Made by a program: the position numbers and the translations under genes | From: Candidatus Sericytochromatia bacterium | GTDB lineage: Bacteria > Cyanobacteriota > Sericytochromatia > S15B-MN24 > VGJW01 | Direction of reading: 5' to 3' | DNA: 64,000 nucleotides | Assembly: GCA_035285865.1 (NCBI GenBank) | Contig: JAYKHS010000030.1 | Coordinates: 96,001 to 160,000 of the forward strand | Notes under the pieces: generated by a model | Told to the model about the DNA's origin: nothing | Databases searched by the model: none | The model's input: only the letters and a program-made list of their open reading frames with translations | In this document: piece after piece, positions 29,506 through 46,135 of the stretch | Layout of the letters: every line of letters starts with the position of its first letter | How positions within the stretch are numbered: the stretch's first letter is position 1

Positions 29506-30408
29506 ATGACCTTGCCCGGACGCCTGCTCACGGCGATGGTGACTCCCTTCGCTGCGGATGGTGCCGTCGATCTGGCGACTGCGGCGCGCCTGGCGCGTCA
29601 CCTGGTCGCCCAAGGATCCGACGGACTCGTCGTCAACGGCACCACAGGCGAATCGCCGACCCTCTCCGAGTCGGAGCGGGAAGCCCTGCTCGACACCATC
29701 ATTGAGGCCGTCGGGGCGGAACGGGTCGTCATGGGCACCGGTTCCAACGATACGGACGCTGCCGTGCGCATGTCCCGGCAGGCCGCTTCGCGCGGTGTCG
29801 CCGGTCTGCTCGTCATCGCGCCCTACTACAACAAGCCCGACACCCGGGGCCTGGAGGCGCATTTCCGGGCGGTTTCCGCCGCCTCCGACCGGCCAATCAT
29901 CCTCTATAACCATCCGCCGCGGACGGGAGTGGCGATTCCGGCTGCATTGGTGGGGCGTCTTGCGGCGGACTGCCCCACGATCGTGGCCCTCAAGGACAGT
30001 TCGGCCAGCCTCGACGTGGCCACGGAGATTCTGCTGGCCACGCCCCCGGATTTTCTGCTCTACAGTGGCAATGACAGCCTGACGCTGCCCATCATGGCCG
30101 TTGGTGGCCACGGCGTCATCAGTGTGGCATCGCACGTGATCGGCCCGCGCCTCCGGCAGCTCGTCGATGCTGCGGCGTCTGGGGATTTCGGGACGGCCCG
30201 ACGACTGCACCATGAACTGTACGACCTGATGCAGGGCCTGTTCCTGGCCCCGAGTCCGGCACCGGTCAAGGCTGCCTTGGCGTGGACCGGGATGCCGGTG
30301 GGTGGCGTTCGTTTGCCTCTTGTCGATCTCGATGGCCGTGACCGTCAGCGTCTCGAGGGCATCCTGCGCGATGCGGGCCTTGTCGAGGCACTCGGGGTGC
30401 GCGCGTGA
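29506..30408 (+). CDS. dapA: 4-hydroxy-tetrahydrodipicolinate synthase
   Basis: TAMVTPF, GTTGESPTL, PYYNKP, LYNHPPRTG, LKDSS and YSGND motifs. Confidence 0.95.
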   Translation: MTLPGRLLTAMVTPFAADGAVDLATAARLARHLVAQGSDGLVVNGTTGESPTLSESEREALLDTIIEAVGAERVVMGTGSNDTDAAVRMSRQAASRGVAGLLVIAPYYNKPDTRGLEAHFRAVSAASDRPIILYNHPPRTGVAIPAALVGRLAADCPTIVALKDSSASLDVATEILLATPPDFLLYSGNDSLTLPIMAVGGHGVISVASHVIGPRLRQLVDAAASGDFGTARRLHHELYDLMQGLFLAPSPAPVKAALAWTGMPVGGVRLPLVDLDGRDRQRLEGILRDAGLVEALGVRA

Positions 30409-32084
30409 CGGGCATCCGCATCATTCCGCTGGGTGGCCTAGGGGAGATCGGCAAGAACTGCTGGCTCGTCGAGTCGGCTGACGACATGGTGATGCTCGAC
30501 TGCGGATTTGCCTTCCCGACGGAGGAAATGTACGGCGTCGACCTCGTCATCCCGGACTTCACCTATGTCGTGGAACGCGCCCACAAGCTGCGCGGAGTCT
30601 TCGTCTCCCACGGCCATGAGGACCATATCGGTGGTCTGCCGTTCCTCTACCGGGAGCTGCCCGATCCCGGAGTGCCCATCTACGGCACGCCTTTCACGAT
30701 GGCGCTCGTGCAGCGCAAGCTGCACGAAGTCTCCGCGCTGCGTGGCAAGGTGCCACTGGTGCCCTGCGAGCCGCGGTCCGTGGTGCAGGCCGGAGGCCTC
30801 GCGGTCGAGTTCATTCGGGTCTGCCATTCGATCGTCGATGCCGTGGGTTTCGGGATTGGCACGCCCATGGGCACCGTCGTCTACTCCGGTGACTTCAAGA
30901 TGGATCAGACGCCGATGGATGGCCATCGCTTCGACTACTTCCGCTTCGCAGCTCTGGGCGAGGAGGGCGTGCTGGCTCTGCTCTCGGATTCCACGAATGC
31001 GGAGCGCGAGGGCATGACGCCTTCCGAACGCGTGGTGGGCGAGGGGCTCCGGCACGCGTTCGGCGATGCCGCGGGGCGGGTCATCGTGGCCACTTTCGCT
31101 TCGAACGTGCAGCGCGTCCAGCAGGTCATCGAGGTGGCTCACGCCTACGGCCGGCGCGTGGCGCTTGTCGGACGCAGCATGCAACAGGTCACGGAACAGG
31201 CCCTGAAGATGGGCTACATGACGGTGCCGGATGGCGTGCTGGGAAGGGTCGAGGACCTCATGGCCCTGCCACCGGACAAGGTATGCATCGTGACCACCGG
31301 TAGCCAGGGCGAACCGATGAGTGGCCTGTCGCGCATCGCCCACGGCGACCACAAGCACGTCGCGGCCATGGAAGGAGATACCGTCATCCTCTCCGCCGTG
31401 CCGATCCCGGGCAACGAGCGCAGCGTCGGCCGGACCATCAACAAGCTCTTCAGTCGCGGCGTCCACGTCATTTATGAGGGTGAGCGCAGCAATGCCCGTG
31501 CGAGCCGTCATGTCTCGGGGCACGCGAGCCGCGAGGAGCTCAAGATCATGCTTTCCCTGACTCGCCCGCGCTACTTCGTACCGGTGCATGGCGAGCCGCG
31601 TCACCTGATTCACCACGCCGAACTGGCCATCCAGATGGGGGTGCCCCCTCAGCATTGCTTCCTGATGGAGAATGGCGCCGTGCTGGAACTGGGGCCGGAT
31701 GGCGGACAGTTCGGGGAACCCGTGCCTTCCACGCCCTTTCTCGTCGATGGTCAGTTGCTCAAGGACATCGGCACCGCCGTACTCAAGGATCGCAAGCAAC
31801 TGGCCATGGAGGGTGTCGTCTCGGTGGCCCTCACGGTGGACGATGCCGGGCGGCTGACGGACCTGCCTCGTCTGCTCTCGCAAGGATTTGTCCACGGCAA
31901 CGAGTTCATGCGGATGCTGCCTGATGCGGAGGCCCTCGTGGCCGAGGTCGTGGATCGATGTCGTGCAGAGGGCATCGTGACCCGCGAGGCCCTGAAGGCT
32001 CAGGTCTCCGAGGCGCTGAGCCGTTTTCTGAACGAACGCTCAAGGCGCCGGCCGGTCCTGCTGGTCTCCGTGCTCGGCGCCTGA
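30405..32084 (+). CDS. rnj: ribonuclease J
   Basis: PLGGLGEIGKN, HGHEDHIG, TGSQGEP, HVSGH and PVHGE motifs. Confidence 0.95.
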   Translation: MTGIRIIPLGGLGEIGKNCWLVESADDMVMLDCGFAFPTEEMYGVDLVIPDFTYVVERAHKLRGVFVSHGHEDHIGGLPFLYRELPDPGVPIYGTPFTMALVQRKLHEVSALRGKVPLVPCEPRSVVQAGGLAVEFIRVCHSIVDAVGFGIGTPMGTVVYSGDFKMDQTPMDGHRFDYFRFAALGEEGVLALLSDSTNAEREGMTPSERVVGEGLRHAFGDAAGRVIVATFASNVQRVQQVIEVAHAYGRRVALVGRSMQQVTEQALKMGYMTVPDGVLGRVEDLMALPPDKVCIVTTGSQGEPMSGLSRIAHGDHKHVAAMEGDTVILSAVPIPGNERSVGRTINKLFSRGVHVIYEGERSNARASRHVSGHASREELKIMLSLTRPRYFVPVHGEPRHLIHHAELAIQMGVPPQHCFLMENGAVLELGPDGGQFGEPVPSTPFLVDGQLLKDIGTAVLKDRKQLAMEGVVSVALTVDDAGRLTDLPRLLSQGFVHGNEFMRMLPDAEALVAEVVDRCRAEGIVTREALKAQVSEALSRFLNERSRRRPVLLVSVLGA

Positions 32085-32859: not shown

Positions 32860-33909
32860 TCAGAGCAAGGGGCGGCCGCCTGCCCCGTAGCCCGTGAGCT
32901 CCACGAATCCCCAGCCTGCAGGCTGTCCCCGACGCTGGACATCGACCAGACCTTCCCAGTAGGTGACGCCGGTCGTCCGGCGGGTCCTAAGCTCCTGGTC
33001 GGGCAAAGCGGGACGAAGCTCCAGGGGCGTCGGATCGCCGGGCACCTTGAGGGTCCAGCGCGAAGGGTAGCGGATGCCGGTGCGTGGACTTGTCCACGTT
33101 GCGGTGGCCGAGAGATTGCCCGGTCCCGGGACCCACGTCTCCTGGCGGCCGTCCGGGTGGCGCATCGAGCCTCGGCTCACGCGCAGAATCCCGCCTTGGG
33201 GATTGCGCAGCACGTAAAGCATCACGTCACGTCCGTCGGCCAGGGTGAGGCTGAACCAGTCCCAGCCCACGGCATCCGGTCCGAGACCACTGCTGGTCCA
33301 TTCACGGTCGAGCCAGGCTGCTCCGCGGACCGGCAGGTGCTTGCCATCGATCGCCACCGTACCCGTGGCCTCGAGACGGGGTTGCGAGTAGTAGCGCGAT
33401 CCTTGGTCCACGGCATCCGACTTGCGCGAGTAAGCCGAGGGTCCGTGGATCATCGGAGGCTTCGTCTCCCGGAGCGTCAGGTCGATGCCCCAGCCATCGG
33501 CAGGAAGGCTCAGGTGGGTCTTTGCCCCGTGATGACGCGCCGACCATGTGCCGATGGCGACGTCGAGCCCGTGCTGTTCGGCCCGAGCGCGCCCCATCGC
33601 CGTCCTGCCCGAGGCCTCCGCATGGCGGAAGCGGCTCCCGCGGACGTCTCCCAGCGCCAGATGGCCGACCACAAGGTCACGAGCGTCCCACGGTCCCTTG
33701 ATGGCGTTCGGGCGGGCAGGCAGCTCCCTGCGGAAGAACGTGACCTGGAAGCCGAATACCCCTCGCCCGGGACTTTCGAGGCGGCCAGTCCAGTACCACC
33801 ACTCTGTCCTGTGTCGCGGGTGGGCTCCGTGATCGGCGGGAAAGGACAGGGTCGTGCCGTCCGCGGATGGGTGCAGCCAGCTCCAGGCGACAAGCAGCCA
33901 GGGCATCAT
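32860..33909 (-). CDS. lipocalin-like AttH/CrtC (carotenoid 1,2-hydratase-like) protein
   Basis: FPADHGAHP, TEWWYWTG, FGFQVTFFR, YYSQPRL, WLDREW, GWDWFS, YWEG and GFVELTGY motifs. Confidence 0.9.
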   Translation of the reverse strand: MMPWLLVAWSWLHPSADGTTLSFPADHGAHPRHRTEWWYWTGRLESPGRGVFGFQVTFFRRELPARPNAIKGPWDARDLVVGHLALGDVRGSRFRHAEASGRTAMGRARAEQHGLDVAIGTWSARHHGAKTHLSLPADGWGIDLTLRETKPPMIHGPSAYSRKSDAVDQGSRYYSQPRLEATGTVAIDGKHLPVRGAAWLDREWTSSGLGPDAVGWDWFSLTLADGRDVMLYVLRNPQGGILRVSRGSMRHPDGRQETWVPGPGNLSATATWTSPRTGIRYPSRWTLKVPGDPTPLELRPALPDQELRTRRTTGVTYWEGLVDVQRRGQPAGWGFVELTGYGAGGRPLL

Positions 33910-36404
33910 CGCGCGCGATCTCCCGGGTGCGTGGCGAGCCGTATGGAGCGTGCCGGTCCCACGCTGGCCAGCACGCCTGCGACGGGAAGTCCGAGCAGCA
34001 GGAGCAGCATTCTGCCGGGCTGGGGCGTGAACGGCAGGTGCCAGCCAAACGCTGCCGGATTGAGCACATCCACGAGCAGGAGGGCGAGACCGAGGCCGAG
34101 CCCGACTCCAAGCAGCGTGCCCACCGTCGTGGCCAGCCACGCCTGGCCGAGCGCATAACGCGCGAGGTCGCCCGCCGAGAAGCCGATCCATCGGTAATGA
34201 ATCAGCATCTGTCGCTCCTCGGCGAGGGCGCTCGACTGACTCGAGGAGAGACCCAGCAGGGCCACCACCAGCCCGATGAGTTCGATCGCCCGCGTGAGCG
34301 CGAAGGTCTCGTCGAAGATGCGCAGGACCTCGCCGCGCAACTCCCCGGGTGTCCGACACACGACGGCGTCCGGTTCCGGCAGGCTGGAGAGCAGCGCGCG
34401 TCTGACGGCCCGGGCATCCGTGCCCGGCTCCAGCATGATGGCGAGACTGCGAGGGCGGCCCCACCCCGGGAAGGCACGGGCAAACGTCTCGTGGGCCATG
34501 AACACCTGACCCTGATCGCTGGCATAGTCCTGCACCACGCCGACCAGCGTCAGGCCCATGCTGCCTGTCGCTGCCGGCAGCTCGAGACGCATGCCCGTGT
34601 GCAGGCCGTGGTGCCGCCAGAGGGCCTCGGTGACGAGGACCTCGTCCCCAGTCCGGGGCATACGCCCCTCGAGCATGGGCAACTCACCCCGCGCAGCACG
34701 TGCTGCCAACGGCATTCCGACGAGGACGACGGGGCGTTGATGCCACTGGGTCCTTACCTCAAGGGTCCGTTCGACCGCCCTGACTCCGCGCAAGCCTGCC
34801 ACGTGGGCGGCCAGAGCGGGTGAGAGCGTTCCCCCCTCTCGCGTGCCCTCGCCCTGGCGCGCGCTCAGGAAGAGGTCGGCAGAGAGCGTGCGCTGGGCCC
34901 AGTGCGCGACGGATCCCCGGAAGGAGGAGACCATCGTGCCCATGCCGAGCACCATGCCCGTGGCAAGGACAATGGCCGAGACGGCCAAGGCGTGCCTTCG
35001 CCAGCCCTGGGCCAGGGAGCGGGCGGCGAGCGGCAGGACAAGCAGCAAAGGCTGCCGACCGGGTGCGCGCAGGCCGTGAAGTGCCCGCAGAAGGACCGGC
35101 ACGAGGCAAGCGGTGCCTGCGGAGAGTAGGGTTGCGGAGGCGAGGGCGACCACGTTCGTGAGGGTACGATCCCGACCAGTCGCGACTGCGGCCGAAGCGG
35201 TCATGCCGGCGCAGACGAGCAGTCCGAGGCCACCGAGGGTCCAGCCCACCGGCCACGGTGGGGGCTGTCGCTCGGGTTGGTGTTCCAAGCCCGTCATCGA
35301 CGGTGCGAGGCTCAGGGCTTTGTAGGCAGGAACTCCTGCGGCCACGGCACCGAGCAAGGTGGAGCAGCCCAGCGCAAGCAGGATGTCCCCGCCCTCGAGA
35401 TGACTCCAGGCGGGTCCTGTGCGCCCGTAGAGGGCCGAGACCGTGCTGCGGATGGCTTGGGTCGTCCCGCTGGCGAGGGCCACCCCGAGCAGCACGCCCA
35501 GAGTTCCGCCGACGGCACCGATGATGGCTCCCTCGGCCAAAAGCACGCTGGCGATGGCGCGCCTCGAGGCGCCAAGCGCATGCAATCGGGCCATCGTGCT
35601 TCGTCTGGCGCCGAAAGAGCGACCCAGCAGGTTCAGGTTCAAGGCGGCACCGAGCAGGACGGAGACGAGGCTCAGCGCAGCCAGGTTGAAGCGGAAGGCC
35701 CGAGCCATCTGATCGAGGACGCGTGCGCGGGACCCGGCAGGCTCCAGCACGAGGCCTCGCGATCGCACACGCGCTGCAAGCGCCTCACCGACGCTGGCCC
35801 GCACGAGGACGCGGTCGAGTCGTCCGGGTCGCTCGAGCAGGCGCTGGGCTTCGGCGATGTCGCAGATGACCCGCGGCTGCGTCGGTCGGTTTCCCAAAGG
35901 CAGCAGGCGTCCCGCAATGCGCAGGCGCAACTGGCGGGAGCCTGCCATCACGGGGACATTCTGGCCGACCGTCCCGGCCCCGGGCCAGAGTACGGCAGCG
36001 GGCCCGAACATGTCCGCAGGATCGGCAACACCTCGTACTTCTCCCCACGCCTCGATCGGTGCCGCAAGGTCGATCCCGGTCAGCATGAGATCCTGTGGAT
36101 CCGGGCCCATCGTCCGGATTTCCCCTTCGATCAGAGGGATCAAGGGATCGGTGGCCGGGACGAGCGATTGCAGGTCGACGAGGATACGCTCGTCCAGGTC
36201 TCCCGCCGGAGCTCGGATGACGTGGCCCGGCGGGCCTGCCAGGGTCTCCAGACCCGACATGAAGGCCTGGTGGACCGAGCGGCTGGCGAGGTGAACGGAA
36301 AGCGCGACCCCGCTGCCGAGCGCAACGCCAAGCACAGTGACCACGAGGCCCCATGGAGCCTTGACCCACCAGCCCGCAGACAGGGCCCGGACTAGTGTCC
36401 TCAA
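33906..36404 (-). CDS. FtsX/MacB-like ABC permease (AttF/G-type)
   Basis: duplicated FtsX permease domains; GVALG, MVSSFR and IFDETFALT motifs. Confidence 0.9.
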   Translation of the reverse strand: MRTLVRALSAGWWVKAPWGLVVTVLGVALGSGVALSVHLASRSVHQAFMSGLETLAGPPGHVIRAPAGDLDERILVDLQSLVPATDPLIPLIEGEIRTMGPDPQDLMLTGIDLAAPIEAWGEVRGVADPADMFGPAAVLWPGAGTVGQNVPVMAGSRQLRLRIAGRLLPLGNRPTQPRVICDIAEAQRLLERPGRLDRVLVRASVGEALAARVRSRGLVLEPAGSRARVLDQMARAFRFNLAALSLVSVLLGAALNLNLLGRSFGARRSTMARLHALGASRRAIASVLLAEGAIIGAVGGTLGVLLGVALASGTTQAIRSTVSALYGRTGPAWSHLEGGDILLALGCSTLLGAVAAGVPAYKALSLAPSMTGLEHQPERQPPPWPVGWTLGGLGLLVCAGMTASAAVATGRDRTLTNVVALASATLLSAGTACLVPVLLRALHGLRAPGRQPLLLVLPLAARSLAQGWRRHALAVSAIVLATGMVLGMGTMVSSFRGSVAHWAQRTLSADLFLSARQGEGTREGGTLSPALAAHVAGLRGVRAVERTLEVRTQWHQRPVVLVGMPLAARAARGELPMLEGRMPRTGDEVLVTEALWRHHGLHTGMRLELPAATGSMGLTLVGVVQDYASDQGQVFMAHETFARAFPGWGRPRSLAIMLEPGTDARAVRRALLSSLPEPDAVVCRTPGELRGEVLRIFDETFALTRAIELIGLVVALLGLSSSQSSALAEERQMLIHYRWIGFSAGDLARYALGQAWLATTVGTLLGVGLGLGLALLLVDVLNPAAFGWHLPFTPQPGRMLLLLLGLPVAGVLASVGPARSIRLATHPGDRAR

Positions 36405-37075
36405 GCCTCGAACCGCCCATCCACGAGCAAGAGGCAGCGGTCGGCCGCAGCCGCCACTTCAGGATCGTGCGTCACCATCAGCACGCCGGTCCCGGAGGTC
36501 CGGACGAGCGAGCCGATCAGGGCGAGCATGGCGCGTCCTGTCTCACGATCGAGATTGCCCGTGGGCTCATCGGCCACGACGAGGGCCGGTGCATGGACGA
36601 GGGCGCGCGCCAGCGCCACGCGCTGCTGCTGGCCGCCCGAGAGGGCAGATGGATGTCGCGCGACGGCATGGCCGAGACCCACGGCCTCGAGCATGGCCAC
36701 GGCGCGTCGCTCGGCATCGGCGGAGGGCGCGCCCTGGAGGTCGAGCGGCAGGCGCACGTTCCCGAGGACGTCCAGGGTGGGCAGCAAGTGGAAGGCTTGG
36801 TGCAGGTGGCCGAGTCGCTCCCGACGAAGACGCGTCAGGGCAGCGTCAGAAAGATTTTCGGTCCGAAGGCCGTCGAGGGCGAGCGTCCCTGCGTCGGGAC
36901 GGTCCGTCAGGGCCACCAGATGGAGCAAGGTGCTCTTGCCGCTTCCGCTGGGGCCCATGATGGCCACCCATTCTCCCGGTCGGATGCTGAGGTCGATACC
37001 GTCCAGTGCCCTGTGTTCAGCTCCTGTGCCCTTGCCGTGGATGCGAACGAGTCCACGAGCCTCGACCAGGTTCAC
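36401..37075 (-). CDS. ABC transporter ATP-binding protein (LolD/AttE-like)
   Basis: GPSGSGKST, LSGGQQQRVALARA, ADEPTGNLD and VTHD motifs. Confidence 0.93.
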   Translation of the reverse strand: MNLVEARGLVRIHGKGTGAEHRALDGIDLSIRPGEWVAIMGPSGSGKSTLLHLVALTDRPDAGTLALDGLRTENLSDAALTRLRRERLGHLHQAFHLLPTLDVLGNVRLPLDLQGAPSADAERRAVAMLEAVGLGHAVARHPSALSGGQQQRVALARALVHAPALVVADEPTGNLDRETGRAMLALIGSLVRTSGTGVLMVTHDPEVAAAADRCLLLVDGRFEA

Positions 37076-37794
37076 GTATCCTGCCCGGGCAACGGGAGCG
37101 TGCGGCGCGCCCGGAGGCGATTCAAGCGCTGCTGGGCATCCTGCCGGACCTCACGCCACGACTGGCCGTGCAGCGGGTGGTCATGCAACTGGCCGGGATC
37201 CGCTGCCAGCCATGTCCCCAAGTCCTCGAACGGGCCTTCAAGTCCGCTGTCCTGCGTGACATCGAGCAGACCGTCCTTGGTGCCGTCCCACTCCAATTGC
37301 AGGCTGCCGTCATGGCCCCAGCCCAGCTGATTCGGACCGCGGCCCAACGCTTCGCGCACCCGCAGCAGCAGCGGAGCGTCCAGCAGGTAGCTGTCCGTTC
37401 GATACCATCGGCCCGCCACCCTGAGCTCCGTGACGGCGTGGACAAGATGCGGCCCCGGATACACGAGTCCGGAGAGGAAGGCGGCAGGCAATCTCGTGAT
37501 GTATTGGCGAGCCTCTTGTCCCGAGGCGCGCCAGAGCGCAGTCAGGAGGGTGGACTTGCCAAGTCCGTCTGCCACGCCTGCAGTCAGGACCTCGGAGGCC
37601 CTGTAGTGGAGCCGTTCTGCAGGAAACCCGAAGGCGATCGCGTCCCTGACATGCCTGTGACAGGCCGCAGCGGCTTCGGCAGTCGGCTCGGGCACGAGTC
37701 GTCGGGCCAATCGTCGGATGGCACCATGGGCACAGTCGACCCACGGGGTGGGTACGTCCCACCGGGTCTCCCGCTCTGTGGTTTCGCCCTGCAC
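37072..37794 (-). CDS. transglutaminase-like protein lacking the catalytic Cys
   Basis: HVRDAIAFGF...ASEVL..GVADGLGKSTLLTALWRASG..AR; HAVTE....GRWYRTDSY. Confidence 0.7.
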   Translation of the reverse strand: MQGETTERETRWDVPTPWVDCAHGAIRRLARRLVPEPTAEAAAACHRHVRDAIAFGFPAERLHYRASEVLTAGVADGLGKSTLLTALWRASGQEARQYITRLPAAFLSGLVYPGPHLVHAVTELRVAGRWYRTDSYLLDAPLLLRVREALGRGPNQLGWGHDGSLQLEWDGTKDGLLDVTQDSGLEGPFEDLGTWLAADPGQLHDHPLHGQSWREVRQDAQQRLNRLRARRTLPLPGQDT

Positions 37795-37883: not shown

Positions 37884-37957
37884 AAATATCCGGGAAGTGC
37901 TGACAACCTGTCCCGACCCGGCCAGCACTTCCCGGACACCCGAGCGTTGACCGCTCT
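37884..37957 (-). ncRNA. candidate structured small RNA, copy 1
   Basis: 5' hairpin GAGCG-gtcaa-CGCTC, then an ~20-bp stem GGGTGTCCGGGAAGTGCTGGC/GTCAGCACTTCCCGGATATTT closing the 16-nt loop CGGGTCGGGACAGGTT; begins 7 nt below a -10 box. Confidence 0.6.
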
Positions 37958-37963
37958 GCAATC

Positions 37964-37993
37964 AGAATAGAGGCATAGACACGAACTAGTCAA
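37964..37993 (-). promoter_or_regulatory. sigma70-type promoter, copy 1
   Basis: TTGACT-N18-TATTCT on the minus strand. Confidence 0.65.
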
Positions 37994-38071
37994 TAGCTAG
38001 ACGAAGGTTGCTCTGTCCTGGCTTTCGCGCCGGTGCACCGCTCCTCTCTCGTCATCGGGGGGCACCCAAAC

Positions 38072-38146
38072 GAATATCCGGGAAGTGCTGACAACCTGTC
38101 CCGACCCGGTCAGCGCTTCCCGGACACCCGAGCGGCGTACCGCTCT
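38072..38146 (-). ncRNA. candidate structured small RNA, copy 2
   Basis: GAGCGG-tacg-CCGCTC hairpin, then stem GGGTGTCCGGGAAGCGCTGAC/GTCAGCACTTCCCGGATATTC with the identical 16-nt loop. Confidence 0.6.
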
Positions 38147-38152
38147 GAACTC

Positions 38153-38182
38153 AAGGTAGAGCATTGGGCACTAGTTGGTCAA
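38153..38182 (-). promoter_or_regulatory. sigma70-type promoter, copy 2
   Basis: TTGACC-N18-TACCTT on the minus strand, same geometry as copy 1. Confidence 0.6.
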
Positions 38183-38229
38183 TAGGTAGACGAAATCGAT
38201 ACAATCCGATAGACAGTTCGTTACTCGAC

Positions 38230-38271
38230 TTAACGAAAGAGCTCCCGGACCAGCGGTCCGAGAGCTCTTTC
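38230..38271 (-). terminator. intrinsic terminator of rpmB
   Basis: GAAAGAGCTC-TCGGACC-GCT-GGTCCGG-GAGCTCTTTCGTT hairpin just after the rpmB stop. Confidence 0.75.
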
Positions 38272-38283
38272 CGACGTCAAGCG

Positions 38284-38526
38284 TCAGCCCTTGAGGAGCG
38301 ACTCCGAGGCACCGTAGCGCTTCAGAGCGTCACGCAGGCCGTAGCGGCCGATGGTCTTGATGACCTTGGCCGAGACCCGAAGGCGAACCCAACGGTTCTC
38401 GTCCTCGAGGAAGAAACGCTTCCACTGCAGGTTGGGCTCCTGGCGGCGCTTGGTCTTGACGTGGGAATGACTGACGGCGTTCGCCACATTGGGCTTCTTG
38501 CCGGACACCATGCACTTGCGGGCCAC
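38284..38526 (-). CDS. rpmB: 50S ribosomal protein L28
   Basis: MARKCMVSGKKPNVANAVSHSHVKTKRRQEPNLQWKRFF. Confidence 0.96.
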   Translation of the reverse strand: MARKCMVSGKKPNVANAVSHSHVKTKRRQEPNLQWKRFFLEDENRWVRLRVSAKVIKTIGRYGLRDALKRYGASESLLKG

Positions 38527-38692
38527 GACCGAATTCTCCAGCTTTCAGAAAAGGAACAGGGAAGCCACACGCTTCCGACAACCTGTGCTAGGATAGATGG
38601 ACCGGGCCGTTCCGTCAAATCCCGCGACGCGGGTCCCGGCCCATCTGGTCCTTTTCCGGGCGTTCGTAGCCCACTTGTCCAGGAGTCCTTTC

Positions 38693-38854
38693 ATGGCAGC
38701 CAGCGGTCACCGCGTGATCATCAAGCTCCGCAGCACGGAGAGCCCCTACCAGTACACGACCTTCAAGAGCAAGCGGAATGATCCCGACCGCCTCGTGCTC
38801 AAGAAGTACGATCCGGTCGTGAAGCGCCACGTCGAATTCAAGGAGACCAAGTAA
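38693..38854 (+). CDS. rpmG: 50S ribosomal protein L33 (Cys-free, C- type)
   Basis: [10 protein letters not shown]...[41 protein letters not shown]. Confidence 0.96.
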
Positions 38855-39096
38855 TGGCGGCCGATAACAAGAAGCGTCAGCGCAAGCGTCGTCGCAAGCC
38901 TTGCCCCTTCCTGTCGGGTCAGGTCGACAAGGTCATCGACTACAAGGACGTGATGACGCTGCGTCGGTTCGTGTCCGAGGACGGCAAGATTCTCCCTCGG
39001 CGGGTGACGGGCGTCAGCGCCAAGTATCAGCGGATCGTGAACGTCGCCATCGGTCGGGCGCGCGAGATCGCGCTGCTTCCCTACCAGAAGCGGTAG
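38854..39096 (+). CDS. rpsR: 30S ribosomal protein S18
   Basis: [26 protein letters not shown]...QR...[13 protein letters not shown]. Confidence 0.96.
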
Positions 39097-39195: not shown

Positions 39196-40530
39196 TCAGT
39201 GATCATTGCGAGAACTGCCTCGCAGCAGCATCCAGGCGAGGCCGGCACCGATCCCGATGGCCGCGGATCGGACCAGCCTGTCTTGCCTTTCGGCGCGGGC
39301 CTTGGCCTCAGCATAGGGCAGGCGTGTGAAGGTCACCATGTGGTAGAGCGACATCCACTGGTCCGGGAGCCAGCGCTGCAGCTGCTGATCGAGCGCGTGA
39401 CGCCACTTGTAGCTGCGCTTCGCGACCGAGTCGCGCATCTCGACGAAGTTGCACATGGCGAGTTCGGCAAGCGCATCCGTGTGGGGCTTGCGTCGGGCGG
39501 CATAGCGCGACAGGGCCAGACGGCGGTCCTCCGGGGCCATCGCCAACTCCTCGGCCAGCACCACGACGTCCTCAAAGGACGCATTCATGCCTTGTCCGTA
39601 GAAGGGCACCACGGCATGGGCCGCGTCGCCCACCAGCGCCACGCAGTCGTCCACGATCCAAGGATCGCACTTCACGAGGACCAGCGACCGGACGGGGTTT
39701 TCGCGCCAGGAATCATCGAAGTCGGGCAGCATCGGCAGGGCATCGGGAAACCATTCCCGGAAAAACTGCCGGGCATCCGCGACGGACTCCAGGTTGGCGA
39801 AGCTCTCGGCGCCTTCGAACGGCAGAAAGAGCGTGCCGGTGAAACTGCCGTCAGGGTTCGGCAGGCCGATGAGCATGTGGTTGCCACGAGGCCAGATGTG
39901 CAGAGCGCCCGGGTCCATGGCGAATGCACCATCAGGCTGGGCCGGGAATGAAATTTCCTTGTAGCCCCAGTCGATGAACTGCTGCTCGTAATCGAATCTG
40001 TCGCGACGCTGCATCTGGCGACGGACAGCGGAGAAGGCCCCGTCCGTGCCGAACAGCGTCAAAAAGGCTTCCTCGCCCCGCGAACCGTCAGCCTTGGACC
40101 ACGTGAGTACCTTGCGCTCGGCATCGAACCCGTCGACACCCTGATCGAAGAGGATCTCCACTTCCGGACAGCGCTCGGCTTCCTCGACGAGCAGCATGTT
40201 GAGTTCGGCACGACCGATGGACAGGATCACGTCCTCGGGATGGATGCCGTAGGGCTGCAACTCGAGCGTCTCATCCTGGCCATGAATCATGCGGCCACGC
40301 ATCGGCAACGCCTTCTCGAGGACTTTCTCCTCGAGGCCGACGCAGGCCAGCGCATGTCGGCCACGCGTGGACAGGGCCATGTTGATGGAGCGTCCCGGGG
40401 GCTGCGGCACCTTGCGCGGGTCGGGGCGCCGTTCGAGGACACGCACTCGATGGCCCCTTCTTCCAAGCGTCAGGGCCAGCAGGGCACCTGCGAGTCCTGC
40501 CCCCGCGATGGTGAATTCGGGTATGTTCAT
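39196..40530 (-). CDS. kmo: kynurenine 3-monooxygenase
   Basis: GAGLAG, GRSINMALSTRG, LHIWPRG, PNPDGSFT, GDAAHAVVPFYGQGMNASFED and NFVEMRD motifs. Confidence 0.93.
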   Translation of the reverse strand: MNIPEFTIAGAGLAGALLALTLGRRGHRVRVLERRPDPRKVPQPPGRSINMALSTRGRHALACVGLEEKVLEKALPMRGRMIHGQDETLELQPYGIHPEDVILSIGRAELNMLLVEEAERCPEVEILFDQGVDGFDAERKVLTWSKADGSRGEEAFLTLFGTDGAFSAVRRQMQRRDRFDYEQQFIDWGYKEISFPAQPDGAFAMDPGALHIWPRGNHMLIGLPNPDGSFTGTLFLPFEGAESFANLESVADARQFFREWFPDALPMLPDFDDSWRENPVRSLVLVKCDPWIVDDCVALVGDAAHAVVPFYGQGMNASFEDVVVLAEELAMAPEDRRLALSRYAARRKPHTDALAELAMCNFVEMRDSVAKRSYKWRHALDQQLQRWLPDQWMSLYHMVTFTRLPYAEAKARAERQDRLVRSAAIGIGAGLAWMLLRGSSRNDH

Positions 40531-41747
40531 GCCTGTTGCTCCAGCACGTGAAGGAAGCGGTCGAGGTCTGCCTCGCTATTGTAGAGGGGCGCCGCAGCCA
40601 GACGCAGGACATCCGGTGCCCTGAGATCGCAGACGATGCCGGCGGCCTCCAGTGCCGCGTGGACGGCTCGGGCCCGTTCGCCCAGGGCAAGACAAGTCAT
40701 GGCCCCGCGGCGATCCGGTGCCTCGGGTGTCAGCAGCCGAATCCACGGTCTGTCCAGCCGTGCGAGGCCGCTGCGCAGATGGTTCGTCAGGTCGATGGCC
40801 CTCGCGTGCAGGCGTTCGATGCCGACGCTGTCGAAGACACGCAGCGAGGCGCGCACAGCCACCATCGACAGCACGGGTGCATTGCTCAGTTGCCACCCTT
40901 CCACGCCGGGTTGCGGATGGAAAGGCGGCTCCTCGGCGAATCGCGTCGCCGGATCGTGGCCCCACCAGCCACCGAGACGCGGCAGGTCCGTCCGCCCGTG
41001 ATGGCGCTCGTGGACGAAGGCTCCGCCTACACTGCCCGGACCGCTGTTGAGATATTTGTAGCTACACCATACTGCAAAATCTGCATTGCTGTCATGTAGC
41101 TTTATTGGCATGTTGCCGGCTGCATGGGCGAGGTCGAATCCGGCCAGTGCGCCGACGGCGTGGGCTGCACGAGTCAGGGCCTCGAGATCGAAAGCCTCAC
41201 CCGTCAACCAGTCCACGCCCGGAAGCCACACCAGTGCCAGTCGTTCGCCCTCGCGGGCGATGGCGTCAAGCAGGTCCTCGGGACGGAAGTGGTTCTCTCC
41301 TGGCCTTGGGCGCAGCGGTACCAGATCCTCTGCCGGATCACCCCCGTGCCAGCGCACCTGGGTTTCCAGAGCGAAACGGTCCGAAGGAAAGGCATGGGCT
41401 TCGAAGAGGATCCGTCGCCGTTTGCCCGACGGGCGATGGAACGAGGCGAAGAGCAGATGCAGGTTGGCCGTCAGGCTGTTCATCATGATGGCCTCGTGGG
41501 GACGGGCACCTACCAGGCGTGAAAGCGGCCCCTGCACGGTCTCGTGGAAGGCATACCACGGGTCCGGTTGCGAGAAGTGACCCGCGACGCCCTCCCGCGC
41601 CCATCGTGCCAGCTCAGCCTCCATGTCCCGCGCCGTGGCGACGGGCTGCAATCCGAGCGAGTGTCCGGCGAGGTACGCCTTGGGGCGTCCGGAGGCATCC
41701 GCAGGGATGTGGAACTGGCCGGTCGGCAGGATAAGGTGGTCGGTCAC
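40527..41747 (-). CDS. kynU: kynureninase
   Basis: YLAGHSLGLQP, MNSLTANLHL, FPSD, DLAHAAGN, WCSYKYLNSGPG, GWWGH and APLYNS motifs. Confidence 0.94.
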   Translation of the reverse strand: MTDHLILPTGQFHIPADASGRPKAYLAGHSLGLQPVATARDMEAELARWAREGVAGHFSQPDPWYAFHETVQGPLSRLVGARPHEAIMMNSLTANLHLLFASFHRPSGKRRRILFEAHAFPSDRFALETQVRWHGGDPAEDLVPLRPRPGENHFRPEDLLDAIAREGERLALVWLPGVDWLTGEAFDLEALTRAAHAVGALAGFDLAHAAGNMPIKLHDSNADFAVWCSYKYLNSGPGSVGGAFVHERHHGRTDLPRLGGWWGHDPATRFAEEPPFHPQPGVEGWQLSNAPVLSMVAVRASLRVFDSVGIERLHARAIDLTNHLRSGLARLDRPWIRLLTPEAPDRRGAMTCLALGERARAVHAALEAAGIVCDLRAPDVLRLAAAPLYNSEADLDRFLHVLEQQA

Positions 41748-41762
41748 GGGGAAGTTTCCGGT

Positions 41763-42536
41763 TCAGGCAGCGGGCGAGACGGGAAGCCAGACGGGGCGGG
41801 CAGGGGCGGCATCCCGATCGAAGGGAGCGATCTGGAGATTCAGCAGGCCGATGCCATCGGGCAGAGCTGCCGGCAACCAGGCCATCTCGGTGATGGTGTG
41901 CGCGCTTCCGCCTGTCGGGCGTTCTCCCGCTCCCAGACCCCAGAAGGCCCTGTGGGCCGCCAGCGCTCCGCCATCCCATTCCGGTTCGAGTGAGGGCAGA
42001 TCGGTCACGACATGGCGACATCCCTGTTCCCGCAGCCAGCCGGCTGCCTCGGCCGTGATGAATCGTCTCGCCAGGCCAGACCAGTCTCGGGGGCCGTCCA
42101 TCGGCGGAGCCAGTCGGATGACGACGGCCTCGCGCCAGGACGCGGGCCACGGCTCAAGTGCCCGCCGCAGCACCTCGGCCGTGAGCGGGGCCGTGGCGTC
42201 GTCGAAGGTCGGACTGACCAGGGTTGCTGGCACAAGCACGTCCACGAGGTCTCGGTGAACCGGCAGTGGGCGGTCCGCCAGATGCCCGATGCCTTCCGTG
42301 TGCGTGCCGTGCGCATGAGGAATGAGCGTGAGGACTTCGCAACGGCAGGAGCCGCCCTCTGCAGGTTCGCCCGTGAAGCTACCGGCACGCACCGTCTCCA
42401 CCGTGGCTCTGGGCAAACCGAAGGCGCCGGCTTGCCGTCCGGCGAAATCGAGGCCGTAGGCCAACACCCGTGCGCTATCAAGCCTGACGGAGCAGACCGT
42501 TCCTGCGACCTCAGCCCGGAGTGTCAGGCCTGTCAC
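41763..42536 (-). CDS. kynB: cyclase-family protein, probable kynurenine formamidase
   Basis: PHAHGTHTE, DLPSLEPEWDGGALAAH, TITE and DAAPARP motifs; located inside the kynurenine cluster. Confidence 0.75.
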   Translation of the reverse strand: MTGLTLRAEVAGTVCSVRLDSARVLAYGLDFAGRQAGAFGLPRATVETVRAGSFTGEPAEGGSCRCEVLTLIPHAHGTHTEGIGHLADRPLPVHRDLVDVLVPATLVSPTFDDATAPLTAEVLRRALEPWPASWREAVVIRLAPPMDGPRDWSGLARRFITAEAAGWLREQGCRHVVTDLPSLEPEWDGGALAAHRAFWGLGAGERPTGGSAHTITEMAWLPAALPDGIGLLNLQIAPFDRDAAPARPVWLPVSPAA

Positions 42537-43531
42537 GCCGGAGCCCCGAGGAAGGAGAGGGCGTTCCGTTCGAGCAGATCGCTGGCGATTTCGGGTCGGT
42601 CGGGCCAGGCATGCCGTACGGCGTCTCCGGCCACTGCCTCTCCCAGAGGAAAGGGGAAGTCCGTGCCGAGCATCAGCCGGTCAAGGCCGCTCTTATCCGC
42701 GAGCAGACGCAGGCTTGCAGCATCCTGGACCAGGCTGTCCACCCAGAATCGCGGCCATTGCTCGGACGGGGGCTTGGCGGTCCGCGTCGCGCAGAGGTCC
42801 GGTCTTGCCACGAATCCGCGGTCGAAGCGCCCGAGCAGGTACGGTACCGCGCCGCCGCCGTGGGCCAGGCCCACGCGCAGGTCCGGAAGCCGATCGAGCA
42901 CGCCCCCGAACATCAGGCTGCCTGCCGCAAGGGCCGTTTCGGCCGGCATGCCGACCAGCCAAGGGGCGAACCAGGAGGGCATTCGTTCTGCGGCCATCAT
43001 GTCCCACGGATGCAGGAACACGGCTGCCCCCAGCGAAGCCGCGGCGGAAAGCACGGTCTCGAGTGCCGGGTCGTCCCAGTTCCGACCCAGAACGTGGGTC
43101 CCCAGTTGCACCCCGCGCAGCCCCAGGTCGCGCACGCATCGCTCCAGTTCGGACACGGCCAGATCCGGGGCCTGGAGGGGCAGCGTGCCGAGCCCCAGAA
43201 AGCGATCCGGGCGCTCCCGGACCCACGAGGCCACGTGGTCATTGAGCAGGCGAGCCAGGTCAAGGGCTGCCTTGCCGGGGGCCCAGTAGCTGAACATCAC
43301 CGGTACCGTCGACAACACATGGCGGTCGATACCGGCTTCGTCCATCGCGGCAAGTCGCGCGGACCGGTCCCAGAGCCGCGCGTCCACGTCGCGAAGGGGC
43401 TTGTCCCCGACCATCAGCTTGCTGCAGCCCATCTCTCCATGAACCAGCGCGGGCCATGGACCGGATCCCCAGCGGTCGGCCATGTCCGGCCACGCGCGCG
43501 GGAGGACATGCGTATGGACGTCCAGCATCAT
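42533..43531 (-). CDS. nbaD: 2-amino-3-carboxymuconate-6-semialdehyde decarboxylase (amidohydrolase_2)
   Basis: DVHTH, STVPVMFSY, HPWDM, PWLVGMPAET, AHGGG and GTDFPFPLGE motifs. Confidence 0.92.
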   Translation of the reverse strand: MMLDVHTHVLPRAWPDMADRWGSGPWPALVHGEMGCSKLMVGDKPLRDVDARLWDRSARLAAMDEAGIDRHVLSTVPVMFSYWAPGKAALDLARLLNDHVASWVRERPDRFLGLGTLPLQAPDLAVSELERCVRDLGLRGVQLGTHVLGRNWDDPALETVLSAAASLGAAVFLHPWDMMAAERMPSWFAPWLVGMPAETALAAGSLMFGGVLDRLPDLRVGLAHGGGAVPYLLGRFDRGFVARPDLCATRTAKPPSEQWPRFWVDSLVQDAASLRLLADKSGLDRLMLGTDFPFPLGEAVAGDAVRHAWPDRPEIASDLLERNALSFLGAPA

Positions 43532-44055
43532 GTGGCGTGTGGTGGCTCCATCACCGTGCCGCAGGACTTGCACGTGCGCTGGGTGGCTTCGCCGCTCCAG
43601 AACTTGGCGAAGGCCTCGGCAAGCTGGGTCTCCAGATCGGAAACCGGCAGGGTGACCTCGTGCAGTTTCAGACCGCACGCCTCGCACGCCCAAAGGAAGC
43701 CGTCGAAGTCCTCCGGCAGTCGAGGGCGCTCGATGACGAGGCCCAGCGTTCCCGGCCCACGTCGTGGCGAGTGGGGTACGCGCCTGGGCAGGAGCAGGGT
43801 CTCGCCTTCACGAACCCGGACGTCCACGGGCTTGTCGTCGATCAGCAGCTTCAGCAGGAGGTCGCCCTCGAGTTGGTGGAAGTACTCCTCGTAAGGGTCG
43901 ATGTGATAGTCCTTGCGGGCGTTGGGTCCGCCGACCGCCATCACGATCAGGTCCTCTCCCCGGTAGAGGCACTTGTTGCCTACGGGCGGCTTGAGTTGAT
44001 CCCGGTTGGCTTTGAGCCATGCCTGAAGATTGATGGGCGTGAAGGGTGGAAGCAT
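43528..44055 (-). CDS. nbaC: 3-hydroxyanthranilate 3,4-dioxygenase
   Basis: LKPPVGNK, VGGPNARKDYH, EEYFHQ, PHSP and two CxxC (CEAC, CKSC). Confidence 0.95.
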   Translation of the reverse strand: MLPPFTPINLQAWLKANRDQLKPPVGNKCLYRGEDLIVMAVGGPNARKDYHIDPYEEYFHQLEGDLLLKLLIDDKPVDVRVREGETLLLPRRVPHSPRRGPGTLGLVIERPRLPEDFDGFLWACEACGLKLHEVTLPVSDLETQLAEAFAKFWSGEATQRTCKSCGTVMEPPHAT

Positions 44056-44061
44056 CGGGAC

Positions 44062-44844
44062 TCAGGCCTCACCTGCCGCTGCCAGCGTGATGCTGCCGAG
44101 CGCTTGCGCCTCCACGACCACGTGCCGGCCGGGAGCCAGGGGATGAGCTGCAGTCAGACCACCCGTCAGGACGATCTGTCCCGGTTCGAGGTGTTCTCCG
44201 CGCGCGTGCAGCAGGCGGGCCAAGGCCATGAGCGCCCGTACGGGGTGATCCATCACGGCAGCGCTGCTGGCAGCTTCGGCCAACTGCCCATCCACGGTCA
44301 TGACCACGCCCAGATTGCCAAGATCAATCGTGTCGGGTCTGCACCAGCAGGTGCCCAGAACATAGGCGGCGGCAGAGGTGTTGTCGGCCAGGACCTCCCC
44401 TAGGGTAAACCGGTAGCCGACATAGCGGCTGTCGAGAACCTCGACGCCCAGCGTGACGGCTTCGATGGCTTCCTGAGCCTCCCGGAAACCCGGTGCGGGG
44501 CCCGGATCGTGCTTCATCCGGAAAACGATCTCGGGTTCGACCTTGGGTTGTTGCCAACCCGTCGTCCGGATCACGCCAGCCTGAACCTCCATCGCTGCGA
44601 GCAGATAGCCGGCAATCGGGGCGTCGAGGTTCATCTGGCGCATCTTTGCAAGGCTGGTGAATCCCATCTTCCAGCCGGAAAGCGCTTCGCCCGCCGCAAG
44701 GCGCAGGCTTCGACCACTGGCCTGAACGGCATAGCCGTCGCCAACTTCGAGTCCGGGCCACGGGCGTTCGTCCGCCTCGAGCAATCGACCGGACCTCCGC
44801 GCCTCATCCAGAAGGCATGCCCACTCGTCGTATGCCGTGGTCAT
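44062..44844 (-). CDS. 4-oxalocrotonate decarboxylase (FAH family)
   Basis: GWKMGFTSLAKMRQM, QPKVEPEI, EVLDSRY, ADNTS and LTGG motifs. Confidence 0.82.
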   Translation of the reverse strand: MTTAYDEWACLLDEARRSGRLLEADERPWPGLEVGDGYAVQASGRSLRLAAGEALSGWKMGFTSLAKMRQMNLDAPIAGYLLAAMEVQAGVIRTTGWQQPKVEPEIVFRMKHDPGPAPGFREAQEAIEAVTLGVEVLDSRYVGYRFTLGEVLADNTSAAAYVLGTCWCRPDTIDLGNLGVVMTVDGQLAEAASSAAVMDHPVRALMALARLLHARGEHLEPGQIVLTGGLTAAHPLAPGRHVVVEAQALGSITLAAAGEA

Positions 44845-45686
44845 CGGTTTGCCTCTCGGGCAAGGCTGACCGTCCCGACGCCCGAGACTCGGGCTTCGAC
44901 ATGGTCTCCCGGAAGGAAGGGAACGACAGGCCCCATCGCGCCCGAGAGCACGATGTGGCCAGACTCGATACGTGTACCGGCAGCCCCGAGCGTTCGTGCC
45001 AACCAAGCGACGGCTTCAGCCGGATGTCCGAGGCAGGCTGCCCCGGCACCGGTTGCCACGACTTCCCCATTGCGCAGCATCGTCATGCCGAGCAACCGCA
45101 TGTCGAGGCCAAGTGGCGAAACAGGCGTGAGGCCCAGCGTGAAGTACGCAGAACTGGCGTTGTCGGCGATGGTGTCCACGATCGTCAGGTTCCAGTCAGC
45201 CACTCGGGAGTCGATGACCTCGAGCGCAGGCAGCACGAAGGCCGTGGCTCTCAGGACATCGGCAGGCGTGCAACCCTGGGTCGGCAGAGACTCGCGCATC
45301 ACGAAGGCGATTTCCGCTTCGATGCGTGCCTGCAGCAGTGTGCCGCCCGGACAGGAAACACCGGCCGGGATGCGCATGCTGTCGAGCAGGACCCCGAAGT
45401 CCGGTTGATCGAAGCCCAGCCACTGCTGGACAGCCTTGCTGGTGACGCCCACCTTGTGGCCGACGACGACCGGAGCGTGATCGCGCTGGGTAGGGACCAC
45501 GGCATTGAGGTGAGGCAGGCGGCCGACGCGACGTGACATGTTGGCCTTCTGCACGCGATAGGCCTGCTCGAGGGTCAGTCCCGGCACGGCGTCCCTGGGA
45601 GGAAGCATGGTGCGACCGTTCCGCTCCGCTTCGGCGAGTTGATCGGCGAGGGTGGCCAGTGCCTGATCCTCCACGGCCGGGTTCAC
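44841..45686 (-). CDS. 2-keto-4-pentenoate hydratase (FAH family)
   Basis: GHKVGVTSKAVQ, DQPDFG, EAEIAF, EVIDSRV, DTIADNASS and GAGAACLGHP motifs. Confidence 0.88.
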   Translation of the reverse strand: MNPAVEDQALATLADQLAEAERNGRTMLPPRDAVPGLTLEQAYRVQKANMSRRVGRLPHLNAVVPTQRDHAPVVVGHKVGVTSKAVQQWLGFDQPDFGVLLDSMRIPAGVSCPGGTLLQARIEAEIAFVMRESLPTQGCTPADVLRATAFVLPALEVIDSRVADWNLTIVDTIADNASSAYFTLGLTPVSPLGLDMRLLGMTMLRNGEVVATGAGAACLGHPAEAVAWLARTLGAAGTRIESGHIVLSGAMGPVVPFLPGDHVEARVSGVGTVSLAREANR

Positions 45687-46135
45687 CGGCGTACCCTCGG
45701 ATCGACGGCCACGACCTTGAGTTCGATCAACAGGTCGGCAAGGGGTAACGAGCGGACGACACAGGTCGTTCGGGTCGGGGCGGAGACAGCCGGGAAACGG
45801 CGATTCCAAGCCGTGTTGAAGGCCGGGTAGTCCGCGAGGTCAACCAGCATGGCGAAGACATCGACCACATGTGTCAGGTCGGCACCGGCTGCAGCGAGGA
45901 TGCGTTCGAGATTCTCGAAGACCCCGTCAGCCTGAGCCGCGAAGTCACGCGTGACGCCCTGGGGGCCACGGACGACGCCAGGAATGGTCTGGTCGGGACG
46001 ACGGGCGGACAGGCCCGAAACCCAGAGCAGTCCGCCAGCTGCCCTTGCGTGCGGGTAATGGGCCAGCGTCCCGGTGCCCTCGGTCAGGACATAGCCAGTT
46101 CCATTGGGGCCCTCGTGGAGTGATGCGGTGGTCAT
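45683..46135 (-). CDS. 2-aminomuconate deaminase (RidA/YjgF family)
   Basis: YPHAR, VSGLSARRPD, FNTAWN, PTRTT and LLIELK motifs; pathway context. Confidence 0.82.
   Translation of the reverse strand: MTTASLHEGPNGTGYVLTEGTGTLAHYPHARAAGGLLWVSGLSARRPDQTIPGVVRGPQGVTRDFAAQADGVFENLERILAAAGADLTHVVDVFAMLVDLADYPAFNTAWNRRFPAVSAPTRTTCVVRSLPLADLLIELKVVAVDPRVRR

Follow-up and report, generated by a model that had tools for sequence, protein, structure and literature searches.

The tandem sibling sRNAs PrrF1/2, OmrA/B, LhrC1-5 and NsiR1 lie side by side as near-identical copies that share a regulator box and have a promoter apiece. A pair of predicted RNA genes in a genome of Candidatus Sericytochromatia follows this plan, with near-identical copies that each have a promoter, a predicted terminator and a conserved structure, but it differs from all of these RNAs in sequence, regulator and seed and has no Rfam match. 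A second parallel is offered by DsrA and RprA, which act on rpoS as anti-antisense activators and need Hfq. As in these RNAs, the seed proposed here would displace a leader helix covering the pre-start region; in contrast, Hfq was not found in the five genomes searched, and the leader concerned, that of the cobalamin adenosyltransferase gene pduO, is about 50 nt long.

The regulator that we propose belongs to class I of the CarH/LitR photoreceptors, known from Thermus thermophilus, Bacillus megaterium and myxobacteria, in which a MerR domain is joined to two B12-binding domains carrying Wx9EH and ExH (PMC9304148, PMC8156234). Light irreversibly cleaves the Co-C bond of CarH-bound AdoCbl (PMC8156234). 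CarH operators are tandem 11-bp repeats (nnnnTnnACAn) over the -35 or -10 in which pseudo-repeats are tolerated, and PduO, which supplies AdoCbl, is essential for its generation in M. xanthus (PMC9304148). The genome studied here has the same protein architecture and motifs, the same kind of tandem TnnACA repeats with pseudo-repeats over the -35, and PduO. The targets described in the available text of PMC9304148, PMC8156234 and PMC9758184 are protein genes, whereas here they would include sRNAs; the term 'sRNA' has 0 occurrences in that text. A literature search on Sericytochromatia small RNAs, CarH/LitR with sRNA, and sRNA with cobalamin adenosyltransferase, which covered part of the literature, found no CarH-controlled sRNA among the matches listed.

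For the output, the nearest described case is RoxS of Bacillus subtilis, which binds yflS at its very 5' end, blocks RNase J1, aids the binding of ribosomes and readjusts a cofactor pool (PMC5419742). Like RoxS, the RNAs proposed here would be of the Hfq-independent type and released from a cofactor-sensing repressor, with Rex/NADH as the sensor there and light/AdoCbl here (PMC5419742). The polarity is reversed, as RoxS presents C-rich regions to a G-rich target (PMC5419742), and no similarity in sequence or structure was found between RoxS and the pair (no Rfam match). With regard to the RoxS/yflS type, the analysis found a complement at the predicted pduO 5' end in 4/4 genomes of the genus, for a predicted +1 and a match that is not significant alone, and the presence of RNase J.

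The window, a stretch of 64,000 nt, belongs to a genome of 2.82 Mb that is 83% complete (G000); G001, G002 and G003 are its three congeners. Gene calls, leaders and intergenic masks were taken from a codon-model caller, and some of its starts are wrong. The locus comprises the following features, with both RNA ends predicted in each copy:

38284-38526, minus strand: rpmB (L28), the upstream neighbour in 4/4 genomes of the genus
38235-38271, minus strand: rpmB terminator hairpin upstream of the RNA pair, with arms at 38235-38251 and 38255-38271
38068-38146, minus strand: predicted sRNA copy A, about 79 nt, with a 6-bp 5' hairpin, a stem of about 20 bp, a 16-nt loop and a U-rich 3' tail
38093-38108, minus strand: invariant 16-nt loop of copy A, containing a 10-nt seed complementary to the pduO leader
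37884-37957, minus strand: predicted sRNA copy B, about 74 nt, with a weaker U tail
37905-37920, minus strand: invariant 16-nt loop of copy B
37072-37794, minus strand: transglutaminase-like gene, the downstream neighbour in 4/4 genomes of the genus

A first-pass annotation of the window had described two direct repeats of about 121 bp, 188 bp apart in a gap of about 490 bp, behind an rpmB terminator at 38230-38271. The hairpin is present, and two repeats of 122 aligned nt with 83.6% identity, separated by 188 nt, lie in the 489 nt that divide the start of the transglutaminase-like ORF (37794) from the end of rpmB (38284). The whole 2.82-Mb genome contains 2 copies of the repeat, both at the rpmB locus. 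A short direct repeat with a hairpin could be an assembly duplication, a REP/MITE element or a CRISPR remnant. However, the copies differ from each other, each genome has two of them, each with a promoter, rather than dozens of dispersed promoterless ones, and three other species have the same pair. The copies are also joined in contigs of other DNA runs: in runs X2 and X3, a contig of about 91% identity extends from within copy B's body across the promoter of that copy and the spacer to reach copy A. The pair is therefore not an assembly duplication, and these explanations are effectively refuted.

The annotated fold, with 5' hairpins of 5-6 bp, a stem of about 20 bp and identical 16-nt loops in both copies, was confirmed (z = -5.2 and -5.0 for the two copies; 0/200 shuffles equally stable). 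The transcript length of about 75 nt given for both units was corrected to predicted lengths of about 79 nt for copy A and about 74 nt for copy B. The terminators of both units are predicted weak U tracts, and UUUGGG directly follows the stem on its 3' side in 7/8 copies (all but copy B of G000), for example at window positions 38065-38070. The plus strand folds well too; we take the minus strand to be the RNA strand because of the promoters and because an alternation of G:U, A:U and G:C at five pairs works on the minus strand only. Across the 8 copies of the four genomes, 96.5% of cells are paired, two-sided changes occur in 4/25 pairs and the loop is invariant in 8/8, with the caveats that related sequences can beat the shuffles of the covariation tool and that all conservation of the RNA rests on four related genomes. 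The two copies of G002 (L004:1448-1780) are identical in RNA and promoter spacer, while A and B are distinct in the other three species; recent gene conversion is the likely cause.

No Rfam family came near its cut-off at the locus, in keeping with the annotation of an unrecognised family: the scan gave 6 matches (best E 1.3), all at or below 18.5 bits against gathering thresholds of 38-69, and 2 matches, both sub-threshold, came from the congener loci and the pduO region. SRP RNA, 6S RNA and tRNA, to which the units could not be assigned from the sequence, and tmRNA likewise have no covariance-model match at the locus. SRP RNA is encoded on contig C26, a sub-cut-off 6S match lies on C16, both away from the locus, and full-length tmRNA was found elsewhere in G001, G003 and G005. 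Nor had the annotation been able to assign the units to a CRISPR repeat, which agrees with two copies per genome, each behind its own promoter.

The suggested check in related genomes returned the same pair in all four genomes of the genus; in each of the three congeners, too, two copies lie between rpmB and the transglutaminase gene. A search with the RNA model found no credible homologue outside the genus in 27 genomes of the order (two weak matches were inspected and dropped), and the RNA was found in 4/47 genomes of the class, all in the genus. An 18-nt loop pattern gave 2 viral matches, put down to chance, and 31 metagenome loci, of which 2 carry the RNA, both from the same genus and the same locus. 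A 22-nt pattern searched in 185,579 species genomes recovered the 3 congeners and one match in Bryobacteraceae without the long stem. The RNA family is thus restricted to the genus and absent from Rfam. Two identities of the loop, over 10 nt with the rpmB leader and over 12 nt with rpsR in G001, were rejected, the former not being conserved and the latter being absent in G000. The assembled contigs of a single RNA run (X20), which cannot show absence, include none over the RNA pair. The earlier inference of sibling sRNAs is supported by synteny, two-sided changes, strand-specific alternation and the lack of an Rfam family, and we hold it very likely that both repeats are real RNA genes.

The transglutaminase-like gene heads an operon with genes for an ABC ATPase, an FtsX permease and a CrtC/lipocalin protein (window 32860-37794), for which we speculate on a role in light-induced scavenging of lipids or retinoids. 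In G001 (L002:1876-1985) and G003 (L003:1643-1752), a third, degenerate unit forms the promoter/leader of this operon; it has a promoter with two upstream boxes and a hairpin retaining GGUCRGGAC. G002 has a single-box promoter at this place. G000 lacks the third unit, so its operon may rely on read-through from copy B. The third unit and the weak U tail of copy B could mean that no trans-acting RNA exists and that duplicated, attenuator-like promoter-terminator units tune read-through into the operon. We consider this quite improbable: a terminator needs neither an invariant 16-nt loop nor a 5' hairpin, a second promoter lies between copy A and the operon, and the invariance of the loop in 8/8 copies contrasts with compensatory changes in the stem. 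Read-through from copy B may still occur beside the production of sibling sRNAs.

Both RNA genes are preceded by sigma70-type promoters overlapped by predicted CarH operators:

38153-38182, minus strand: sigma70-type promoter A, with -35 TTGACC (38177-38182), 18 nt, -10 TACCTT (38153-38158), 6 nt and AGAGCG at 38146
38165-38203, plus strand: predicted CarH operator A, with TGGGCA (38165), TGGTCA (38176, over the -35), TAGACG (38187) and GATACA (38198) in 11-bp register
37964-37993, minus strand: sigma70-type promoter B, with -35 TTGACT (37988-37993), 18 nt, -10 TATTCT (37964-37969), 6 nt and AGAGCG at 37957
37976-38003, plus strand: predicted CarH operator B, with TAGACA (37976), TAGTCA (37987, over the -35) and TAGACG (37998)

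The promoter elements and their spacings are as first annotated in both units, and a promoter scan returned 3 promoter-like sites against 0.2 expected, with promoter B among them and promoter A below threshold. The spacer, by contrast, had been taken as diverged and hides a conserved box. On the strand opposite to the RNA, the boxes, which cover the -35 and the spacer, are arranged as a spacer box, a pseudo-box over the -35, an upstream box and often a fourth; rhodopsin and SDR promoters also carry theirs on the non-coding strand. At the two fixed positions, in the spacer and upstream of the -35 and 22 bp apart, the eight A and B promoters of the four genomes read TnnAC(A/G) in 15/16 cases with variable nn, and none of the other strands or registers reaches 6 boxes. 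The six key box columns are conserved at 0.875-1.0 against 0.63 in 24 neighbouring columns (permutation p 3.5e-5, for positions picked post hoc in related sequences). Many boxes of the RNA promoters end in G, as the search rule of PMC9304148 permits. The carH promoters of the genus have the same layout, TnnACR-5-nnnnCA-5-TnnACR, which has 4 intergenic matches in the genome, including carH and RNA-B.

A matrix was trained on 18 boxes from nine carH promoters of other genomes; three of the nine training genomes are congeners and half of the boxes are -35 hexamers. Among 342,592 intergenic windows of G000, it ranked the rhodopsin promoter 1, RNA-B 3, carH 5 and RNA-A 6, followed by a gene read as CIA30-like (9), SDR (19) and ahpC/gpx (22). 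By the same matrix, the six A and B promoters of the congeners would rank 1-8 in the G000 list. On the strand from which the RNA promoters draw their scores, the -35 of these promoters gives no help.

The upstream box and the -35 also form an imperfect palindrome, GTCWA-N4-TTGAC, which is unique to RNA promoters A and B in the genome; a relaxed palindrome scan matched the promoters of rhodopsin, cryptochrome/photolyase and a MerR gene. Since the middle box over the -35 is a pseudo-repeat throughout, and another MerR-type HTH gene exists in the genome, the RNAs could be real and the upstream motif could serve a different regulator or have arisen as a by-product of duplication and of a strong -35. 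This is improbable in our judgement, as the palindrome leaves unexplained both the spacer box, which lies in exact 11-bp register in 7/8 promoters, and the ranking of the RNA promoters beside those of rhodopsin and carH. Judged from operator sequence, control of the pair by CarH is the probable reading. Neither this regulator, with its CarH-type operator, nor the target discussed below was recognised in the first-pass annotation.

The candidate regulator is encoded outside the window:

contig C30, 64449-65411: class I CarH of G000, with the domains MerR_1, B12-binding_2 and B12-binding

Of its solved relatives, Thermus CarH is the best (E 1e-30), it retains Wx9EH and ExH besides both B12 domains, and an adenosyltransferase is encoded in the genome. 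It scores 144 against a cut-off of 400 for the NCBIfam CarH equivalog, and the name CarH rests on architecture and motifs. carH is present in 4/4 genomes of the genus, 0/4 of the rest of the family and 16/27 of the order, and CarH is therefore more widespread than the RNA. Promoters of carH across the order show TnnAC(A/G)-type boxes. In other families of the order (L145, L147, L149-L152), they contain a back-to-back array for divergent genes, made up of two antisense boxes followed by two sense boxes that end in the -35. The carH neighbours in G000 are genes for ferrochelatase, DUF1295, SDR, FAD oxidoreductase and photolyase proteins, a neighbourhood resembling LitR clusters; typical targets of the LitR family (class II) are photolyase, SDR, FAD oxidoreductase and folE (PMC9758184).

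Further sites of the predicted CarH regulon in G000 lie at C20:52079, C30:64367, C30:67316, C30:63043, C30:73708, C30:97669 (window position ~1670, at a gene read as folE2), C17:112748, C2:18435, C7:62280 and C4:39655. The predicted regulon takes in rhodopsin, carH-hemH, SDR, ahpC/gpx, genes read as CIA30-like, folE2, SRPBCC-epimerase and TetR, and some without known function. The rhodopsin gene (C20:52176-52961) has the top-ranked CarH operator, and the antisense box pairs of the rhodopsin and SDR promoters are kept in alignments of the four genomes. Because phytoene synthase was found in 0/4 genomes of the genus, the regulon there is not one for carotenogenesis.

The invariant loop complements the ~10 nt with which the pduO mRNA is predicted to begin. 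The gene, which encodes a PduO-type cobalamin adenosyltransferase (C28:162460-163005; PF01923, TIGR00636), lies outside the window, and the loop complement is a 12-nt match in its leader (C28:163044-163055), about 50 nt upstream of the gene. Across the genus, the site begins 5-7 nt after a conserved predicted -10, TA(A/C)CAT, lies 38-54 nt from the start codon and is kept in 4/4 genomes, with 10, 9, 10 and 10 pairs; in G002, an A-to-G change keeps a G:U pair while the rest of the leader has diverged. None of 21 other pduO leaders from the order has a contiguous 9-bp match.

A first target scan, with windows of -45..+25, missed the pduO site and did no better than 12 shuffles; its top match, at the glmU end/prs leader, was not among the exact matches in the congeners and was rejected. 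With windows of -100..+25, the pduO leader ranks 1 of 2,577 at -30.4 kcal/mol, which is no better than the best leader energies of eight shuffled loops (-27.8 to -31.1 kcal/mol), and the target match is not significant alone. The pduO duplexes of G001 and G002 reach -22.1 and -23.0, against -21.6 for the best gapped outsider. Among the 66 G002 occurrences of the 10-mer that were examined (67 listed; 10 without an orthologue), four persist in G000: two lie antisense to coding sequence, one belongs to the RNA gene, and the fourth, in pduO, is the only one that is sense and non-coding. From 68 leader pairs, about 0.7 conserved leader matches are expected per random loop. The case for pduO rests on the identity of the gene, which was noticed post hoc, on top rank, on position and on genus-restricted presence. 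A 151-nt contig of RNA run X20 covers the pduO start and ends short of the seed site, and the changes listed for the X2/X3 strains include none in the pduO site, as expected at their low divergence. On this evidence, we lean slightly towards pairing of the loop with the pduO leader; the compound claim, that light-induced sRNAs from CarH-type promoters pair with the pduO 5' end, falls a little short of an even chance.

When folded from the predicted +1 as far as the start codon, each of the four leaders forms a 5-nt toehold and a helix of 5-7 bp that joins the rest of the site to a purine-rich pre-start segment, with two weak pairs in the toehold of G000. The net binding of loop and pduO is -10.6 to -17.4 kcal/mol in the four leaders, loop-topology cost excluded. 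Predicted release of the pre-start segment is clear in G002 alone (0.43 to 0.85); it is slight in G003, while G000 and G001 show none, and the folds of G001 and G003 change when 30-60 nt of coding sequence is added. Positions 6-10 of the site could be maintained by the cis helix alone.

Instead of activating pduO specifically, the RNAs might repress, act on further leaders, or both. Loop complements of at least 9 nt occur in 23 leaders in sense against 7 in antisense, and 2/419 dinucleotide shuffles and 14/11,573 abundance-matched 16-mers reach 23; once normalised for abundance, the enrichment is weak (35/419 shuffles reach the ratio). Three of five further leaders that were checked (C14:40500, C3:160218 and C18:~53410) have each retained, in 3 genomes, a site compatible with pairing, and release of the ribosome-binding site of pduO is not predicted in G000 and G001. 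Yet in G002 each of these sites is disrupted or was not found, the two other leaders lost theirs, and pduO has the only site kept in 4/4 genomes, at a distance from the start codon that makes direct blocking of the ribosome-binding site unlikely. We regard this alternative as unlikely, though other C-rich leaders may be further targets of RNAs that activate pduO. Two leaders, one at C10:14453 and the other belonging to the gene that diverges from carH, were rejected for loss of the site; so was the start of a periplasmic-binding-protein gene, where an 11-nt match in 3 genomes encodes M-S-R-P. The photolyase leader (C30:~70790; orthologues L272-L274) opens with a run rich in C that complements the loop in part, over 9 nt in G002 and with a bulge in the others.

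Of the two functions first suggested for the loop, a base-pairing seed fits better than a protein decoy. As decoys, the CarH-controlled RNAs could bind CsrA through the GGA in the loop or act as an RNA anti-repressor of CarH. CsrA is encoded in 5/5 genomes searched, the GGA is predicted to be unpaired (0.82-0.99), all 16 loop nucleotides are invariant though 10 pair with pduO, and the degenerate third hairpin with GGUCRGGAC recurs in the downstream operon leader of G001 and G003. The usual CsrA site, however, has an A before GGA, and here each RNA exposes a single GGA without it; a sponge of the CsrB/RsmZ type, which needs multiple exposed GGA motifs, was rejected for the same number. Moreover, csrA directly follows a gene read as fliW in a flagellar operon, which points to protein antagonism; on inspection, the RNA contains no 11-bp repeat array. 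Ro60/TROVE, the partner of Y RNAs, had a match in 0/5 genomes, which also removed a Y RNA identity. A decoy role is improbable in our judgement, and we return to a seed that pairs with pduO.

We tentatively propose, as a possibility well short of an even chance, that light-released CarH frees the twin sRNAs to activate pduO through its 5' end, so that the photoreceptor governs regeneration of its own single-use chromophore. In the dark, CarH loaded with coenzyme B12 would repress both RNA promoters. In the light, by analogy with known CarH biology, it would leave its operators and the RNAs would be made. Their seed would dock on the 5-nt C-rich toehold at the predicted pduO +1 and, as folding predicts, displace the helix that holds the purine-rich pre-start segment; and/or the duplex would shield the pduO 5' end from RNase J, which is encoded in the window:

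30405-32084, plus strand: RNase J, the 5'-3' exonuclease that an sRNA bound at the 5' end would block

More PduO would then re-adenosylate the cobalamin left by photolysis, for use by NrdJ, the mutase and CarH itself, and a negative feedback would be closed. Two copies would provide a higher dosage or a graded response; the latter may apply because operators A and B differ in strength. NrdJ and methylmalonyl-CoA mutase, both AdoCbl-dependent, are encoded, and motif regexes on the 83% complete genome matched MetH and did not match MetE, BtuR or cob biosynthesis motifs. With these motifs unmatched and AdoCbl enzymes present, the organism would depend on PduO to repair cofactor lost to photolysis, and activation is for this reason the more sensible sign; given pairing with pduO, activation is fairly likely. 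On sequence grounds, the light input of the sRNA family is well supported; the B12 feedback output is plausible but unproven.

CarH destroys its chromophore at each light-sensing event, and its re-arming hence depends on an adenosyltransferase. The available text of the CarH/LitR literature examined does not address how adenosyltransferase supply is matched to illumination. If the proposal is true, a CarH-controlled sRNA aimed at pduO supplies this link, adds control after transcription to a photoreceptor family of wide occurrence and provides an RNA-based feedback loop, a form of light adaptation, in bacterial light sensing. The loop would sit in a non-photosynthetic sister lineage of cyanobacteria with rhodopsin and without phytoene synthase, Ca. 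Sericytochromatia would gain a defined regulatory RNA for which both input and output are predicted, and a light-switched activator of 80 nt would be useful in optogenetics. Even with the wrong target, the CarH-boxed pair would make up an sRNA family that is new and whose inducing signal can be predicted.

Several further observations concern the surroundings of the locus. The genes rpmB-rpmG-rpsR (window 38284-39096) resemble zinc-free paralogues, and in this genus the zinc-free-type rpmB is the sole rpmB found with the query used. In other genomes of the order (L057, L059, L060, L062), this type of rpmB precedes a gene that we take to encode a CobW/COG0523-like GTPase. A tRNA-Sec is encoded in G000. 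A kynurenine/3-hydroxyanthranilate degradation cluster, read from ORFs with the monooxygenase alone profile-scanned, flanks the ribosomal genes at window positions 39196-47619.
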